From Patescibacteria group bacterium (GTDB taxonomy: Bacteria; Patescibacteriota; UBA1384; XYA2-FULL-43-10; 1-14-0-10-43-13), in NCBI GenBank assembly GCA_041674765.1, contig JBAYVE010000004.1, positions 26,751 through 90,750 on the forward strand: a stretch of 64,000 nt of DNA, read 5' to 3'. The notes under the pieces were generated by a model. That model was not told where the DNA came from and ran no database searches. It saw nothing but the letters and a program-made list of their open reading frames with translations. Both the position numbers and the translations under genes were made by a program. This document shows, in pieces, positions 4,173-52,484 of the stretch (position 1 is the first letter of the stretch; the number at the start of each line of letters is the position of its first letter).

Positions 4173-4267
4173 CTACCTCACCTAGCCTCTCCTAAACTAG
4201 GAGAGGGATTAAACAGGATCATTGCAATTATTTCCCCTCCTGGATCAGGAGGGGTTAGGGGAGGTAG
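4173..4267. mobile_element. MITE-like hairpin repeat block (left copy) with ctacctc...gaggtag termini
   Basis: ctacctcacctagcctctcctaaactaggagagggat + second hairpin cccctcctggatcaggagggg; 37-bp core identical to 4630-4666. Confidence 0.7.
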
Positions 4268-4653
4268 TAAAAATAGAATATATTTTCAATAATAAAGATA
4301 GTGCTGATCTCAGGCGCAATCTTCGGAAGAATATGCCTATTACAGAAGTGGTTATTTGGCAGAGAATCAGGGCGGGCCAATTGGGTGGCTATAAGTTCAA
4401 AAGACAATATAGCGCCGCTAATTTTATTTTGGATTTTTACTGCCCATTAAAGAGACTAGCGATCGAGCTTGACGGTGAAAGCCATTATTTGGGCAACCAA
4501 AAAGAATACGATAAAGACAGAACTAAATATCTGAATTCGCTAAATATAAAGGTTGTTCGATTTACCAATAAAGAAGTGATGGAGAATATTGAGGGCGTGA
4601 TTGAGAGGATACTATCAATTTTAAATGAACCTACCTCACCTAGCCTCTCCTAA
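4222..4653 (+). CDS. DUF559 (Vsr/endonuclease-fold) domain protein
   Basis: LRRNLRKNMPITEVVIWQRIRAGQLGGYKFKRQ...ILDFYCP..LAIELDGESH...VVRFTNKEV matches the DUF559 signature. The ATG at 4222 lies inside the left repeat block, so the true start is uncertain. Confidence 0.75.
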   Translation: MQLFPLLDQEGLGEVVKIEYIFNNKDSADLRRNLRKNMPITEVVIWQRIRAGQLGGYKFKRQYSAANFILDFYCPLKRLAIELDGESHYLGNQKEYDKDRTKYLNSLNIKVVRFTNKEVMENIEGVIERILSILNEPTSPSLS

Positions 4654-4773
4654 ACTAGGAGAGGGATCAGAACGGGATCATCATGGCTACTTTCCCTTAT
4701 TTGATTAGGAGTGATTAGTAGGGCCATTGCAGCTACTTTTCCTTCTTCGATTAGGAGGGATTAAGGGAGGTAG
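4630..4773. mobile_element. MITE-like hairpin repeat block (right copy), direct repeat of 4173-4267 with a longer middle
   Basis: Same 37-bp core, shared ggatcat/attgca middle and terminal ...gggaggtag; overlaps the 3' end of the DUF559 ORF. Confidence 0.7.
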
Positions 4774-5544: not shown

Positions 5545-6100
5545 TTTTTCCTTTTCTTCCCCTCATTTTTAAGGAGGGGCTAGGGGTGGTTTATTTATTA
5601 ATTTTCAATTTTTAATTTAAATTTTTCTAATAACTATCAACGGATCAAATCTCTTCTAGCGTGTCATCCTCGGGACCGGCGGTGTTCTCTAGAGTGGTGC
5701 CTCATTCGAGTCTGCCTTCGATTCACACTCAGGCCCTGAGCCTGTCGAATGGGAGCCTGAGGGCTCTTCCCTCAGAGTCGAAGACCGGGGACCCAATTCC
5801 TTTTTTGCGGTGTCATCCTGAGGAACCGAAGGATCTCTGAACTTGTTTCAGGTGGCATTGACTTCGCATTCGCGAGGGATTCTTCGCCTCCTCAGAATGA
5901 CAGACTAATATGGTGTATAACTGATAGATTCTTCGCCTCCGAGAACATTGGCTCAGAATGACAGTTGTTATGGTGTATGTAATCACCATATGGTGATATT
6001 GACCACTCATTAACTTTATTATATACTTGCTCATCGTTCTTGTCAAGGCTTGCTTTGGTGAGAATGTTTTAAATATCAATCGAGCTCAAATTATGCTTTC
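5545..6100. repeat. Cluster of dispersed MITE-like repeats. Modules present: gtcatcctcgggacc; cctcagagtcgaagaccgggg; ctcagaatgacag; gattcttcgcctcc
   Basis: Modules recur at 20512-20740, 27545-27684, 30047-30225, 36294-36700, 40865-41000 and 45685-45960; no convincing ORF. Confidence 0.8.
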
Positions 6101-8949: not shown

Positions 8950-9060
8950 GTTGGTCATCTCGACATCCGCCTCTGGCGAGACGAGAGATCTTCATTTGAG
9001 TGTTTGATTCTGGATTCCCGCCTACGCGGGAATGACAGCAGAAGAGGCGGTACATCAATG
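8950..9060. repeat. MITE-like repeat (ggattcccgcctacgcgggaatgac hairpin plus companion module)
   Basis: One mismatch from the 24-bp hairpins at 52013-52036 and 52214-52237. Confidence 0.7.
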
Positions 9061-9106
9061 ATAGATTGCTTCGCAAAGACACTCGCAATGACAGGTAAAA
9101 ATATTT

Positions 9107-9943
9107 ATGAAAAACAAAAACAAATTATCTTTTATTAAACGATTTGGCTGGTTGATTTTAATTGGTCTTGTACTTTTAATTGGTCTTTATTCGTATTTTG
9201 TCGAGCCCAAATTATTGGGTGTAAAGAGTTTCGTGTATGGGGGCGAGCAGGTGCCGGATGAGTTTATCGGCAAGAAGATTGTCTTTCTCTCGGATCTCCA
9301 TTTTGGTGTCGGCAATTTAGATTATGGCAAAATCGTTGAGAAAGTGAATGATGAAAAGCCGGACATAATCATTCTCGGCGGCGACTATATCGATCGCGAT
9401 CCCAAGTTTATCGATGAGTGCGTTTCTTATTTGGAAAAATTGAAAGCTCCTTTTGGGGTCTATGCGGTCTTTGGTAATCATGATAATCGCAGAAAAGTGT
9501 TACCAGGATTAAAAGCAGCTCTTTCCAAAACAGATATCAAAATTATCAACAACGAGTCCTTTTGGATTAATGCAGGTAGTTCAAGGATCAGAATCGGAGG
9601 AGTGGGCGATCTTGATACGGATGACCAATTGATTAAAAAAACGACCGCCGGCGTCTCAAGGGAGGAATTAATAATTTTGGCCTCGCATAATCCTGATTAT
9701 TTTGAGTCTTTGGTGGGGAATGAAGTTGATCTGGTATTCTCCGGCCACGTCCATGGCGGACAAATGAATTTTTTTAGGCTCTGGTATCCGATTTCGGTGA
9801 CGGCCTACGGAAAAAAATTTATGAATAGTTTGGTAGAGGAAAAGGGCATAAGTATCTTCACATCAAATGGCATCGGAATGACAGCCCTTCCTCTCCGTTT
9901 CTCAGCCAGACCGGATATAATCAGCGTTACTCTTGAGAAGTAG
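9107..9943 (+). CDS. metallophosphoesterase (calcineurin-like) with N-terminal TM anchor
   Basis: DLHFG, GGDYID, GNHD and SGHVHGGQ motifs. Confidence 0.85.
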   Translation: MKNKNKLSFIKRFGWLILIGLVLLIGLYSYFVEPKLLGVKSFVYGGEQVPDEFIGKKIVFLSDLHFGVGNLDYGKIVEKVNDEKPDIIILGGDYIDRDPKFIDECVSYLEKLKAPFGVYAVFGNHDNRRKVLPGLKAALSKTDIKIINNESFWINAGSSRIRIGGVGDLDTDDQLIKKTTAGVSREELIILASHNPDYFESLVGNEVDLVFSGHVHGGQMNFFRLWYPISVTAYGKKFMNSLVEEKGISIFTSNGIGMTALPLRFSARPDIISVTLEK

Positions 9944-20511: not shown

Positions 20512-20740
20512 TTCAGCTCCAAATGTCATCCTCGGGACCAATGGTGATCTTGGAAATGGTACCCGGGGATCCAATTCCTTATTTATATTAGAGGACAGGG
20601 GGCTCTTTCTCTTCGAGTCTGAGCGACGAGGTCGCTAGGCCTCAGAGTCGAAGACCGATGCCTGAATAATTCTATAAACCCCCTCTAGCTCCCCCTTGAG
20701 AAGGGGGAGAAAATAGTGTTTTGGTAAGATTCAATTGGAT
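20512..20740. repeat. MITE-like repeat cluster. Modules present: gtcatcctcgggacc; gaggacagggggctctttctcttcgagtctgag; cctcagagtcgaagaccg; ctcccccttgagaagggggag hairpin
   Basis: Modules shared with 5545-6100, 36430-36480 and 45790-45830. Confidence 0.8.
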
Positions 20741-27544: not shown

Positions 27545-27684
27545 ATAATTGCCCCTTGGTTGTCATTTCGACTCCCTGATGTGTTGTCAGGGGCGGAGAA
27601 ATCTTTTGCGGCACAATGGCGTTAAGTCAGTCTAAAGATCTCTCGGCTGGCTACCGCCGCTCGAGATGACAGAAAAGAAAAACA
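27545..27684. repeat. MITE-like repeat (gtcatttcgactccctgatgtgttgtcagggg ... ctcgagatgacag)
   Basis: Near-copy at 36312-36350. Confidence 0.7.
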
Positions 27685-36293: not shown

Positions 36294-36700
36294 ACATTTT
36301 TTATTTTATTTGTTTGTCATTTCGACACCTCAATGTGTTGTCGAGGTTTATTCAGGATCAAATTCCTTGCTTCCTCACCTTCTCGAGGGGAGGCTAGGTG
36401 GGGTGTATAAAATATAACTCCATTTGTTATTTTCTTTTTTTGAGGACAAAGGGACTTATTCTCTTCGAGTCTGAGAGTCTTTGATGTTTCTTTTTATCGA
36501 ATTGATATTTGCTAAGCAAAGTAACTGATCATCCCCCCATCGTCATTCCGGACTGTAAGCTAGAGATCTGGAATCTATCGTTATAATAGATCCTGAAACA
36601 AGTTCAGGATGACAGAATGAGTGAGGAGTTACTAAGCTAACTATTGACAAAATATTAATAATATACTATAATATATATAGATATCTGGATCTGATGGTAT
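36294..36700. repeat. MITE-like repeat cluster. Modules present: gtcatttcgacacc...; cctcaccttctcgaggggagg hairpin; gaggacaaagggacttattctcttcgagtctgag; gtcattccggactgtaagctagagatctggaatc; gatcctgaaacaagttcaggatgacag
   Basis: No coding potential; several modules match other clusters. Confidence 0.8.
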
Positions 36701-47801: not shown

Positions 47802-49103
47802 ATGACAAATATCAAAGATAAAATCAAAGATTTACCGAAAGAGCCGGGTGTTTATCATTTCATAGATGAAAAAGGCTCTGTTCTATATGTCGGGAAGGCC
47901 AAGAATTTACAAAACCGTCTCAGACAGTATTTCCTGAAAGAGCTTGGACGTGGTCCAGCGATAGAACAAATGGTAGAAAAAGCAAGAGATATTAAATGGA
48001 TCGAGACAGAATCGGAGATTGAGGCTGTCATACTTGAGGCAGAGCTGATCAAGAAGCTAAAACCGAAATATAATATCCGCCTCAAAGATGATAAAAGCTT
48101 TTTGGTGATTAGAATTACTAAAGAAGATTTCCCAATCGTTGAATTGGTTCGCTTTCGAAATGTCGATTTATCGGACAAATCTGCTTGGTATTTCGGCCCA
48201 TATCCTGCGGGGGAACTCCTTAGAAAATCATTAAATTATTTGCGCAAGATCTTTCCCTTCCGCGATTGCTCTAAGGCAAAGTTCAATACTTACAAAAAGA
48301 AGCAGCGAACCTGTATCTATGGAGATATTAGGGTTTGTTCTGGCCCCTGCAACGCCTGGGTGAATAAATCTCAATATAATAAGAATATTATCTATCTAAA
48401 AAATTTCCTCCGGGGTAAGAAAGGAAAGATTATTGCCGACTTGGAAAAGGAGATGAAAGCCTTTAGTCGAGCACAGCGATTTGAACAAGCGGCGCTAGTC
48501 CGGAATAAGCTAGCGGGACTTGAACACTTAAAAGATGTGGCCTTGGGCCTCAGAGACGACGTTTTCAACGGCAGAGAGGTGTCTTTCCATCGAATAGAGT
48601 TTTATGACATTGCGAACATCGGTAAAGAGCACGCTGTTGGATCAATGGTTGTCTTCACGGACGGCAAATCCGATAAAGACGAATACCGGAAGTTTAAAAT
48701 TGAGGATGAGATTTCTCCGACCTCGAAAACAGGGGGTCGAAATGACACTATTTTATTGAATAACGATCTAGGCCGCTTAAAGCAAGTTTTGCAGAGGAGG
48801 TTTAAAAATGATTGGCCAATGCCCGATCTAGTTCTAGTCGATGGCGGACCCCTACAGCTCAAGATTGCCAAAGAAGTAATTTCTGGTCTAGGGCTAAACA
48901 TTCCACTAGCTTCGGTTTCCAAAGGGCCTCGGCGGGAAAAGAATGATTTTCATTATGGCGACCTCAACATCGCAAATTTCATTGGCAATGATCGGCAACT
49001 CCAGAATATTTTGATAGAAGCGAGGGATGAGGCTCACCGCTTTGCAATTTCTTATTATCGCAAACTACATCGGAAAAGTGTTTTTCAAAATGACTCTCAA
49101 TAA
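47802..49103 (+). CDS. uvrC: excinuclease ABC subunit C homologue lacking the C-terminal HhH region
   Basis: GIY-YIG (PGVYHFIDEKGSVLYVGKAKNL..R), Cys-rich UvrC motif, UVR helix, RNase-H-like endonuclease region; only about 433 aa. Confidence 0.8.
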   Translation: MTNIKDKIKDLPKEPGVYHFIDEKGSVLYVGKAKNLQNRLRQYFLKELGRGPAIEQMVEKARDIKWIETESEIEAVILEAELIKKLKPKYNIRLKDDKSFLVIRITKEDFPIVELVRFRNVDLSDKSAWYFGPYPAGELLRKSLNYLRKIFPFRDCSKAKFNTYKKKQRTCIYGDIRVCSGPCNAWVNKSQYNKNIIYLKNFLRGKKGKIIADLEKEMKAFSRAQRFEQAALVRNKLAGLEHLKDVALGLRDDVFNGREVSFHRIEFYDIANIGKEHAVGSMVVFTDGKSDKDEYRKFKIEDEISPTSKTGGRNDTILLNNDLGRLKQVLQRRFKNDWPMPDLVLVDGGPLQLKIAKEVISGLGLNIPLASVSKGPRREKNDFHYGDLNIANFIGNDRQLQNILIEARDEAHRFAISYYRKLHRKSVFQNDSQ

Positions 49104-50190: not shown

Positions 50191-50970
50191 ATGCGCAGGC
50201 CTATTGTAGTTGCTAATTGGAAAATGCATACTCACTCGGCAGATGCTGGGATATTGGCAACATCTGTCAGGAACAATGTTGCTGATTTTGAGGGTGTTTC
50301 AATTATTATCTGTCCACCGATGATCTGGCTTACTGAAGTTGCGTCTATCATCGGAAAAGGCGGTCGTTTGGAGGTTGGAGCTCAAAATGCCTTCTTCGAA
50401 GCCGAGGGCGCGTATACGGGGGAAGTTTCTCCCACAATGATCAAGGACGTCGCCAATTATGTAATTGTCGGCCATTCAGAGCGCAGAGAGTATTTTGGTG
50501 AAACTGATCTGGATGTCAACGAAAAAACGATCGCTGCGTTGAAGGCTGGTCTGACGCCAATTATTTGCGTTGGCGAGCGGAAGAAGAAAAACAATCCCGA
50601 TGAACCGGTAAGTGAGCTAATCGAAGCATTGGCTCATATCCCAAAGAAAAATTACAAAGATATTATTGTTGCTTATGAGCCGGTATGGGCGATCGGAACA
50701 GGCGAGAATGCTGATCCAATTTATGTTTCTAAAATAATCACAAAGCTTCGAGAGATAGTTCACTCAAACACGTCAATCCTTTATGGGGGCAGCGTAAATT
50801 CAGGGAACGCTGAGTCATACGCCAAGATGCCACAAGTTGATGGTTTATTGGTAGGCGGGGCATCCCTTCGGGCTGCTGATTTTGTCAAAATATGCCGGAC
50901 TTGGTCGTTATCTAAGAATTTTAAGAATGATCTCTTTGTGATCAAGGAGGAAGATGAAGATAGCAATTAA
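50191..50970 (+). CDS. tpiA: triosephosphate isomerase
   Basis: VVANWKM, GHSERR, YEPVWAIGTGE. Confidence 0.95.
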   Translation: MRRPIVVANWKMHTHSADAGILATSVRNNVADFEGVSIIICPPMIWLTEVASIIGKGGRLEVGAQNAFFEAEGAYTGEVSPTMIKDVANYVIVGHSERREYFGETDLDVNEKTIAALKAGLTPIICVGERKKKNNPDEPVSELIEALAHIPKKNYKDIIVAYEPVWAIGTGENADPIYVSKIITKLREIVHSNTSILYGGSVNSGNAESYAKMPQVDGLLVGGASLRAADFVKICRTWSLSKNFKNDLFVIKEEDEDSN

Positions 50971-51943
50971 CGGTTTCGGCCGGATCGGCCGGGCTGCCGC
51001 CAAAATAATTACCGGACGCACTCAAATGGAATTGGTGGCTATCAATGATTTGACCGATGTCCCTACCCTAGCCCATTTGCTAAAGTATGATAGCTGCTAT
51101 GGCACATGGAAGTGTGAAGTTGGCTATGACGAGGGGGATATACTGATAGAAAAGCAAAGAATTCACGCCTATGCAGAGAAAGATCCGGCGTTGTTGCCAT
51201 GGCGTGAGCTTGGGATTGATATTGTTCTAGAATGTACTGGGCATTTTCTCACGACGAAAGATGCAGGGGCGCATCTAAAGGCAGGCGCCAAGAAGGTTAT
51301 ACTGTCTGCGCCGCCGAAGGATGAAACGCCGATGTATGTCATGGGAGTCAATGCTGGGAAATATGATGGAGAAAATATTGTTTCAAACGCTTCTTGCACA
51401 ACCAACTGTATAGCTCCTGTGATGAAGGTACTCGAAGATGAATTCGGCATTGAAAAGTCTCTGATGTCGACAATTCACTCCTATACTGCCGACCAGAATT
51501 TGGTTGATGGACCGCACAAGGATCTTCGACGCGCTAGAGCAGCAGGGATGAATATAGTCCCGACTTCGACGGGTGCGGCAAAAGCAGCATACAAAACTGT
51601 GCCGGCGCTTGAGGGTAAATTTGATGGTATTGCGCTCAGAGTGCCGACTCCGGTCGTTTCGCTTTCCGATATCACGGCTGTTCTCAAGAAAAATGTCACG
51701 GTTGAGGATATCAATAAGGCTTTTAAGTCGGCTGAAAAAGGTGTTATGTCGGGATTCCTAGCGACGACTGATGAGCAATTGGTCTCAATTGATTTTCGAG
51801 GATCTCAATTTTCGACGATTGTAGATCTATCTTTGACACAAGTGGTGGGCGATAATTTAGTCAAGGTGATCGCCTGGTATGATAACGAGTGGGGATACAG
51901 TGAGCGTTTGGTAGACTTGGCGGAGCTAATCAACAAGCGCTGA
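50954..51943 (+). CDS. gap: glyceraldehyde-3-phosphate dehydrogenase
   Basis: INGFGRIGR, ASCTTNCIAP. Confidence 0.95.
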   Translation: MKIAINGFGRIGRAAAKIITGRTQMELVAINDLTDVPTLAHLLKYDSCYGTWKCEVGYDEGDILIEKQRIHAYAEKDPALLPWRELGIDIVLECTGHFLTTKDAGAHLKAGAKKVILSAPPKDETPMYVMGVNAGKYDGENIVSNASCTTNCIAPVMKVLEDEFGIEKSLMSTIHSYTADQNLVDGPHKDLRRARAAGMNIVPTSTGAAKAAYKTVPALEGKFDGIALRVPTPVVSLSDITAVLKKNVTVEDINKAFKSAEKGVMSGFLATTDEQLVSIDFRGSQFSTIVDLSLTQVVGDNLVKVIAWYDNEWGYSERLVDLAELINKR

Positions 51944-52004
51944 TTAGCATTTTCAATTTTTTTGTCATTTGATCAGATGGACTCGCAGGCCCAGAATCTA
52001 GTGT

Positions 52005-52245
52005 TCTGTATTGTCATTCCCGCGGAGGCGGGAATCTATACAATGTAAATTCCTTTTATGAAACTATATTATGTTTATATATTAGCGAGTGAAAAGAACG
52101 GAACTTTGTATATTGGTGTTACTTCTGATTCAAAGAAAAGGGTTTGGCAACACAAGAATAAATTGGTAGTGGGAAGATTTATATTTTAATATTTAAGGCA
52201 AAACAACTTCCTCGATTCCCGCCTCCGCGGGAATGACGGACAAGG
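52005..52245. mobile_element. Truncated GIY-YIG nuclease mini-element bracketed by perfect 24-bp inverted hairpin repeats
   Basis: gtcattcccgcggaggcgggaatc at 52013-52036 and its exact reverse complement at 52214-52237; internal ORF 52058-52189. Confidence 0.75.
52058..52189 (+). pseudogene. GIY-YIG nuclease N-terminal fragment (43 codons)
   Basis: MKLYYVYILASEKNGTLYIGVTSDSKKRVWQHKNK matches the GIY-YIG signature; ORF stops well short of a full domain. Confidence 0.7.
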
Positions 52246-52253
52246 AGAAAAAT

Positions 52254-52484
52254 ATGTGTCTTGCGATTCCTGGAAAAATTGAAAAAATCGAAGGCTCAAA
52301 GGCATTCTTTAAATATGATCATAAAAAGTATGAAGTTGATATTCTGCTGGCACCCGAAGTCGAGATCGGTGACTGGATCCTAATGCATGATGGCCGGGCC
52401 CTTTCAAAAATTACAGAAGAGGAGGCCAAAGAAAATTTAGAGTTTATAAAACAACACAAGGAAATGGCCTGTCTGCCTCATTGA
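52254..52484 (+). CDS. hypC: hydrogenase maturation factor HypC
   Basis: MCLAIPGKI N-terminus with Cys2, about 77 aa. Confidence 0.8.
   Translation: MCLAIPGKIEKIEGSKAFFKYDHKKYEVDILLAPEVEIGDWILMHDGRALSKITEEEAKENLEFIKQHKEMACLPH

Follow-up and report, generated by a model that had tools for sequence, protein, structure and literature searches.

The closest described counterpart of the locus reported here is the Ssn/NTS system of Chenal et al. (Nat Commun 2025; PMC11893778). The NTS of Neisseria has the consensus CGTCATTCCCGCGMAVGCGGGAATCYRG and is a longer, oriented repeat that contains approximately half of the neisserial dRS3 copies, dRS3 itself being ATTCCC-N8-GGGAAT (PMC11893778). The ssnA gene (NMV_0044) encodes a 94-residue, single-domain GIY-YIG protein of the group cd10448 (GIY-YIG_unchar_3), which is found across bacteria, and NTS-like repeats (SRMs) flank its homologues, with at least one SRM nearby in 71% and SRMs on both sides in 42% (PMC11893778). 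SsnA binds the NTS solely as ssDNA, recognizes the forward strand only, and cuts 5' of the repeat, at a distance of a few nucleotides; the three bases preceding the palindrome (GTC) have the greatest effect on cutting, the C following it has the greatest effect on binding, and the sequence of the loop is without importance (PMC11893778). Tyr6, Tyr17, and Glu64 are the residues that were mutated in the Neisseria protein, and mutation of the glutamate abolishes cleavage (PMC11893778). In N. meningitidis the enzyme restricts transformation by NTS-containing DNA (PMC11893778). The NTS-ssnA-NTS architecture was called "identical to" that of an IS and was likened to REP/RAYT, with no mobility demonstrated; selfish mobility of Ssn cassettes is a published hypothesis and not a demonstrated property (PMC11893778). 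A literature search on Ssn mobility found no follow-up.

The locus examined here lies in a 64-kb stretch of DNA, hereafter the window, and had been described in a first-pass annotation as a truncated GIY-YIG nuclease gene between inverted hairpins. It shares with the Ssn/NTS system a peptide that is 65% identical to gonococcal SsnA over the retained part, a 28-nt oriented hairpin repeat (25-26 of 28 positions), a repeat-gene-repeat layout, and solo repeats elsewhere. It departs from that system in that the gene is dead, its catalytic Glu region having been lost by a frameshifting deletion of ~149 nt; in that the host is a Patescibacteria (CPR) MAG and not a Pseudomonadota symbiont or pathogen; in that the loop of the flanking repeats starts with G, which the published search patterns do not cover; and in that the repeats face inward, whereas those of the gonococcal locus are the other way round. 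We consider the feature to be very probably (roughly 0.88) a decayed NTS-ssnA-NTS cassette. The locus is a new but dead example of a system already described in 2025.

Hairpin repeats of the NTS type in the window

The repeats of the NTS class in the window are as follows.

52012-52039, plus strand: left-hand NTS-like hairpin (SRM), in forward orientation and facing the cassette interior; TGTCATTCCCGCGGAGGCGGGAATCTAT; 25/28 to the NTS consensus.
52211-52238, minus strand: right-hand NTS-like hairpin, reading forward on the minus strand and facing inward; CGTCATTCCCGCGGAGGCGGGAATCGAG; 26/28 to the NTS consensus.
9010-9037, minus strand: solo NTS copy; TGTCATTCCCGCGTAGGCGGGAATCCAG; 26/28 to the NTS consensus; fits the published SRM search pattern.

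The inverted repeat GTCATTCCCGCGGAGGCGGGAATC that bounds the ORF has 24-nt arms at 52013-52036 and 52214-52237 that are 100% complementary and lie 177 nt apart, exactly as the first-pass annotation had it. Its further statement that each terminus is a stem-loop was also borne out: both arms contain the palindrome ATTCCCGC-N4-GCGGGAAT, giving an 8-bp stem and a 4-nt loop, and when folded as ssDNA the left and right arms reached -10.5 and -10.6 kcal/mol (z scores of -4.5 and -3.2 versus shuffles), respectively. Allowing up to three mismatches, the 64-kb window has three copies of the 24-mer, versus 0.00 expected from 100 dinucleotide-preserving shuffles. The third copy, on the minus strand with one mismatch, is the nuclease-free terminus that had been reported previously; the copy and its single mismatch stand, with the end corrected from 9037 to 9036 (9013-9036).

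The 20-bp dRS3 palindrome ATTCCC-N8-GGGAAT is matched exactly at 9014-9033, 52016-52035, and 52215-52234 (0.36 matches expected), and the GTC that precedes the palindrome and the C that follows it are kept in all three NTS copies of the window (GTC...GGGAATC). The left repeat is the point at which DNA homology to other ssn loci starts, and the right repeat has the position and orientation that it has in full-length cassettes. The solo copy sits in an intergenic cluster with two further GTCAT...ATC hairpins (8954-8990, plus strand; 9064-9092, minus strand). When the published SRM search pattern was run on the window it found the solo copy at 9010-9037, along with two doubtful sites (36541 and 61563), and it missed both flanking copies, in which the first loop base is G. 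A G at this position is present in 22 of 89 strict-hairpin copies from the survey of ssn loci described below. Because the published pattern misses both flanking copies over this one loop base, a generic repeat definition (GTCAT, a stem of at least 5 bp, ATC) was used in its place.

The window's counterpart in ENA is the 92-kb contig k141_1979706 of ERZ27247358. The identical sequence, with 0 mismatches, is present in contigs of a second sequencing run (SRR6484325), and the locus is therefore not an artefact of a single assembly. Two of the contigs from that run (the end of L002 and the start of L176) break exactly at the left hairpin, 52010-52039, where they overlap by 30 nt, and are otherwise identical to the window. 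The left hairpin interrupts short-read assembly, and this may reflect further repeat copies or variants in the SRR6484325 sample.

A truncated ssnA gene

Between the two hairpins, the following features were assigned.

52058-52189, plus strand: ORF of 43 codons, the truncated ssnA pseudogene as now read; MKLYYVYILASEKNGTLYIGVTSDSKKRVWQHKNKLVVGRFIF.
52058-52174, plus strand: retained ssnA codons 1-39, which contain the motif tyrosines Tyr7 and Tyr18 and also Arg28; 58-84% identity to homologues.
52170-52175, plus strand: deletion junction, within a short TGGGA/GGA microhomology; ~149 nt lost, not a multiple of three.
52170-52196, plus strand: 3' ssnA remnant WEDLYFNI*, out of frame with the 5' part.

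The GIY-YIG profile search that the first-pass annotation had proposed for the 43-residue peptide gave 33.6 bits against Pfam PF01541 (cut-off 22.6) over profile positions 2-35 of 78, the N-terminal half. This generic PF01541 model was the only Pfam match, and NCBIfam has no model specific to the peptide. By BLASTP the peptide is 65% identical (22/34) to the 94-residue N. gonorrhoeae SsnA (E 1e-15 for the pair); the membership criterion of the Ssn paper is a tblastn E < 1e-10 to Neisseria SsnA (PMC11893778). A full-length relative (L004) matches the gonococcal ORF with E 7e-29. That 94-residue ORF has Tyr6, Tyr17, and Glu64 as reported (PMC11893778), and NTS copies follow it in two gonococcal chromosomes.

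The ORF had been described as the N-terminal half of a GIY-YIG domain; the gene is indeed truncated, by an internal, out-of-frame deletion that keeps both gene ends. Aligned with 13 full-length cassettes, the window copy is homologous from the left hairpin to codon 39 (…KLVVG), where the match jumps to TGGGAAGATTTATATT and then extends as far as the right hairpin. TGGGAAGATTTATATT encodes the W-E-D-L-Y stretch, eight codons ahead of the normal stop, and is identical to that region in one of the surveyed loci (L013). Counted from the ATG through the original-frame stop (52194-52196), the gene measures 139 nt here versus 288 nt in 95-residue genes; ~149 nt, a non-multiple of three, have therefore been lost, and this loss shifts the frame so that the 3' remnant is out of frame and the ORF ends in …GRFIF*. 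The last eight codons are kept at the 3' end, where the Neisseria counterpart is WRDLWFDII*. The deleted stretch corresponds to roughly codons 40 to 86 and holds the REK-motif glutamate (Glu64 in Neisseria). Because the deletion took the region of the catalytic glutamate and shifted the frame, the product, as judged from its sequence, cannot act as a nuclease; the gene is a pseudogene of the Ssn family that lacks an intact catalytic core. A search of the 64-kb window and of 9.4 kb of the contig upstream of it found no intact ssn gene.

Homologous loci in other genomes

One genome per species was scanned, which gave at least 597 related loci; the best 80 of these were kept. These best 80 of the at least 597 come from CPR groups, Deltaproteobacteria, Chloroflexota, Planctomycetota, Bdellovibrionota, Ignavibacteria, Cloacimonadota, Alpha-, Beta-, and Gammaproteobacteria, and others. 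The peptide search returned small GIY-YIG proteins only, many of them truncated. Full-length relatives are mostly of 94-97 residues, the longer listed values reflecting upstream start codons, and the full-length gene encodes a single domain of ~95 residues without a DNA-binding domain. A sequence search of the PDB with a full-length relative found no solved structure.

Hairpins of the form ATTCCC-N8-GGGAAT or a close variant (TTCCCGC-N4-8-GCGGGAA) were found at 40 of the best 80 of at least 597 loci, mostly at stereotyped positions, namely a few tens of nucleotides 5' of the ATG and directly 3' of the stop, with loops that are reverse-complementary. For the strict hairpins at these best 80 of at least 597 loci, forward copies outnumbered reverse copies 27 to 2 upstream, and reverse copies outnumbered forward copies 29 to 4 downstream; both hairpins therefore point into the gene. 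Hairpin density across the same best 80 of at least 597 was 1.43 per kb near the gene versus 0.14 per kb, a 10-fold difference. With the generic GTCAT-hairpin-ATC definition, inward-facing repeats were present upstream at 49/80, downstream at 59/80, and on both sides at 42/80 of the best 80 of at least 597 loci. Full-length copies with the same termini, which the first-pass annotation had suggested seeking, thus exist, and the absence of inverted repeats from full-length homologues, named there as grounds for rejection, is not what was observed. Across the 89 strict-hairpin copies of other loci, with each copy turned to whichever orientation fits the NTS consensus better, the T of GTC and the C after the palindrome are invariant (89/89 each), and the G and C of GTC are kept in 86/89 and 88/89, respectively. 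Across the surveyed loci, the hairpin repeats are a trait of the ssn family.

The gonococcal locus is arranged otherwise: around ssnA (L181 481-1005, NZ_CP119140.1) the upstream NTS copies are reverse and the downstream ones forward, contrary to the inward-facing layout that dominates in the best 80 of at least 597 loci. (The 2.17-Mb record NZ_CP119140.1, filed as a "plasmid", is a mislabelled N. gonorrhoeae chromosome.) The closest homologues of the window gene (P0004 and P0001) are full-length genes that are each killed by a single nonsense codon, and truncated genes are present at several of the best 80 of at least 597 loci; decay seems, from these genes, to be common in the family.

Two further observations were made at these loci. 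NTS hairpin arrays accompany some ssn genes (L010, 1807-2720; L036, 1305-1488; L038, 867-2100), and in the first of these, from Ignavibacteria, 15 NTS copies lie downstream of the gene, most at a spacing of 41-42 nt, in a NIME-like arrangement. In addition, a nonsense-mutated ssn copy (L177 1-1460, GCA_043784805.1) adjoins TraG-/TraC-like conjugation genes; conjugation delivers ssDNA, and the association may therefore merit attention.

Assignment to the Ssn family and proposed mechanism

The window has the repeat-gene-repeat layout, with the left and right repeats matching CGTCATTCCCGCGMAVGCGGGAATCYRG at 25/28 and 26/28 positions, respectively. The NTS match, the homology to SsnA, and a low score with the group I intron endonuclease model TIGR01453 together assign the locus to the Ssn family of cassettes and not to homing elements. 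The earlier description of a "degraded selfish or homing mini-element" is therefore kept as to a degraded mini-cassette with conserved termini and dropped as to homing (TIGR01453, 17.4 versus 56 bits; ~95 residues without a DNA-binding domain).

We propose the following history for the decayed cassette. By analogy with Neisseria, intact ssnA would have encoded an enzyme of ~94-95 residues that bound the forward NTS as ssDNA and cut a few nucleotides 5' of it (PMC11893778). The cassette would have arrived by insertion at the gap|hypC junction, as one syntenic relative suggests. An internal deletion of ~149 nt at a short GGA-type microhomology removed approximately codons 40 to 86, the glutamate included. 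If an intact Ssn were encoded elsewhere in the genome, the flanking hairpins and the solo copy at 9013 would remain putative substrates, because all of them keep the GTC and the C. On transient ssDNA, as in replication, repair, or incoming DNA, such an enzyme would be expected to place one nick immediately beyond either end of the cassette, the two falling on opposite strands. Given that no intact ssn is present in the window or 9.4 kb upstream, the three hairpins may instead be orphans.

The gap-hypC junction and the possibility of mobility

The placement of the element between gap and hypC, as first reported, was confirmed by domain matches.

50954-51943, neighbouring gene: gap, with Gp_dh_N/Gp_dh_C domains.
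51944-52253, no strand: gap-hypC spacer of 310 nt, missing from the syntenic relative L085/L086.
52254-52484, neighbouring gene: hypC, HupF_HypC 71.5 bits; true start at 52254, reading MCLAIPGK.

The relatives' gap junctions were obtained by exact-protein look-ups of the closest GAPDH homologues; a metagenome scan with the GAPDH protein gave relatives of at most 60% identity among the matches listed and was uninformative on the empty site. The nearest named relatives by GAPDH are Candidatus Berkelbacteria (67-79% identity). One relative (L085/L086), with a GAPDH 79% identical to that of the window, has the same gene order (uvrC, tpi, gap, hypC, ABC transporter, NiFe-hydrogenase gene), and in it the last base of gap is 3990 and the first of hypC 3991, the stop codon abutting the hypC ATG (...aaataaATGTGT...). 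The empty site that had been sought in relatives is thus represented by this single syntenic gap|hypC junction, the gap-hypC synteny being common to this one relative only; further relatives have 2-30 nt after gap, without ssn. Because the gap stop abuts the hypC start in the syntenic relative, we judge that the 310-nt segment was probably inserted between the two genes. This single comparison, with a fairly distant genome (79% GAPDH identity), favours insertion over loss and is silent as to mechanism; the search for relatives turned up no genome closer than this one.

The spacer is made up of the 225-nt hairpin-bounded cassette, 16 nt to its right that hold the hypC ribosome-binding site, and 69 nt to its left. 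These 69 nt (51944-52012) had no match at the other ssn loci. A decayed second NTS was considered for this stretch and rejected, the best local alignment (score 14) falling at the 95th percentile of shuffles with only TGTCATT in common. The 69-nt stretch comes after a terminator-like hairpin (51925-51948; 8-bp stem) that overlaps the stop codon of gap and leads into a T-rich run. The two genes may be transcriptionally uncoupled here; the syntenic relative is without any spacer.

It is possible, if on balance doubtful, that NTS-ssn-NTS is an IS-like transposon with the hairpins as its ends and that the window copy is a non-autonomous, MITE-like derivative that intact Ssn could move in trans. 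Several observations are in keeping with this idea. The inward-facing inverted termini are conserved across phyla; the internal deletion spares both ends, as in MITEs; the syntenic relative L085/L086 has an empty site; solo hairpins and clusters of them occur in intergenic DNA, the window holding 11 GTCAT-hairpin-ATC units versus 0.54 expected; and the authors of the Ssn paper themselves remarked on the IS-"identical" architecture (PMC11893778). Like MITEs such as the Correia elements, the window cassette is short (225 nt), has perfect terminal inverted repeats, and has lost its coding interior. Unlike them, it has no target-site duplication and no multiple identical copies were seen, and the mobility of its presumptive parent is itself a hypothesis. 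No direct repeat was found at the ends of the window cassette or of the 13 aligned full cassettes, so that a target-site duplication is not visible at any of the 14. Some IS families make no target-site duplication. Against the same idea, transposition by Ssn has never been shown, its sole demonstrated activity being ssDNA cleavage without strand transfer (PMC11893778); just one cassette is present in 64 kb; and the relative with the empty site is distant (79% GAPDH identity), so that recombination or horizontal transfer could account for that site equally well.

A further comparison is with REP/RAYT (REPtrons, BIMEs) and IS200/IS605. In each, a small nuclease gene lies between inverted hairpins that are recognized as ssDNA, and the repeats are dispersed intergenically. 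The chemistry differs, as Ssn is a GIY-YIG protein that cleaves hydrolytically and has no known strand transfer, versus the covalent intermediate of an HUH tyrosine. The gene between the window repeats is GIY-YIG and not the HUH Y1 transposase of a REPtron. We would offer only tentatively the broader proposal that NTS-ssn-NTS cassettes are autonomous selfish mobile elements that insert at gene junctions, a GIY-YIG/ssDNA counterpart of IS200/IS605 or REPtrons, with the window locus a MITE-like deleted derivative beside the empty site of a relative.

Other readings of the hairpins and the ORF

The decayed NTS-ssnA-NTS cassette was weighed against three explanations that do without it. In the first, which is improbable, the hairpins are terminators or REP-like mRNA stabilizers of a gap-hypC operon and the ORF is incidental. 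REP elements stabilize upstream mRNA, and the hairpins here are stable and lie in the spacer of a co-oriented operon. Neither NTS hairpin is followed by a T-run, though, the only terminator-like site being the different hairpin at 51925-51948; the ORF is clearly homologous to ssn; and ssn genes in unrelated contexts are flanked by the identical hairpin type. Any regulatory effect would be secondary.

It is still harder to accept that the hairpins belong to another repeat system, either REP/RAYT or dRS3-type targets of IS110/Piv-like recombinases or filamentous phages, and that the GIY-YIG fragment is adjacent by coincidence. The core ATTCCC-N8-GGGAAT does equal dRS3 of Neisseria, which is reported as a phage and IS target. 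As with dRS3 and the neisserial intergenic mosaic elements (NIMEs), this identical core is found in intergenic DNA and clusters or arrays are possible (15 copies in L010); the window differs in having just three copies of the class in 64 kb and no mosaic RS units between them. It speaks against coincidence that the oriented flanks (GTC... ...C) that separate NTS from plain dRS3 are present in 3/3 copies, that the intervening gene is ssn, and that a RAYT or IS110-type ORF is absent nearby. Descent from a homing endonuclease gene, whether I-TevI-like or of the group I intron type, is equally implausible, since beyond the shared GIY-YIG fold and catalytic motif and a weak, sub-threshold similarity to TIGR01453 (17.4 bits, far under the 56.05 cut-off) the full-length relatives have ~95 residues and no DNA-binding domain, as against ~215-250 residues, a separate C-terminal DNA-binding domain, cleavage of dsDNA, and residence in introns or phage genomes for the I-TevI family, none of which applies here; the gene sits in a spacer and not within a target gene, there is no intron or intein context, and an Rfam scan of the 64-kb window gave no matches at all and hence no group I intron.

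Further hairpins and nuclease genes in the window

The window holds 11 units made up of GTCAT, an imperfect hairpin of one of several stem classes, and ATC, where none of 200 shuffles gave more than 3.

5812-5962, 8954-9092, 27637-27670, 36316-36613, and 48710-48746: GTCAT-hairpin-ATC units; examples are GTCATTCTGAG…, GTCATTGCGAG…, GTCATCCTGAAC…, and GTCATCTCGA….

Most of these units are clustered between long ORFs, and the one at 48710-48746 lies within an ORF. Three of the classes flank ssn genes in other genomes (L005, L047, and L055). Going by their sequences, the units resemble BIME/NIME-like clusters made up of several SRM lineages.

The window has another small nuclease gene that lies between hairpin repeats. 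It is a DUF559 (Vsr-like endonuclease) ORF at 4222-4653 (Pfam PF04480, 110 bits) with perfect 37-nt direct repeats at 4173-4209 and 4631-4667, each of which contains a hairpin with a 9-bp stem, CCTCTCCTAAACTAGGAGAGG; related hairpins are at 4234-4254 and 20689-20709.

When translated, the hairpins give stereotyped spurious peptides (…VIPAEAGI…, …SFPRRRES…, and …DSRLRGND…), in the window at 51962-52048 (plus strand), 52186-52305 (minus strand), and 9004-9138 (plus strand), and the same strings recur as N-terminal extensions of ssn ORFs in other genomes. Such hairpin-derived peptides are a likely source of false gene calls.

Significance

In itself the locus, a pseudogene copy belonging to a system reported in 2025, carries little weight. 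For annotation, recognizing the hairpins averts false gene calls, and the same hairpins break short-read assemblies. For the family, the locus extends Ssn/NTS cassettes, together with several other GTCAT-hairpin-ATC classes, to a reduced Patescibacteria genome; natural transformation, the setting of the role shown in Neisseria, is not established in Patescibacteria. A deleted copy that preserves its termini, paired with a syntenic empty site, is the type of evidence needed to test whether the cassettes are mobile. If they are, several element lineages would have left behind, as debris, the GTCAT...ATC hairpin classes that are scattered through this small CPR genome.
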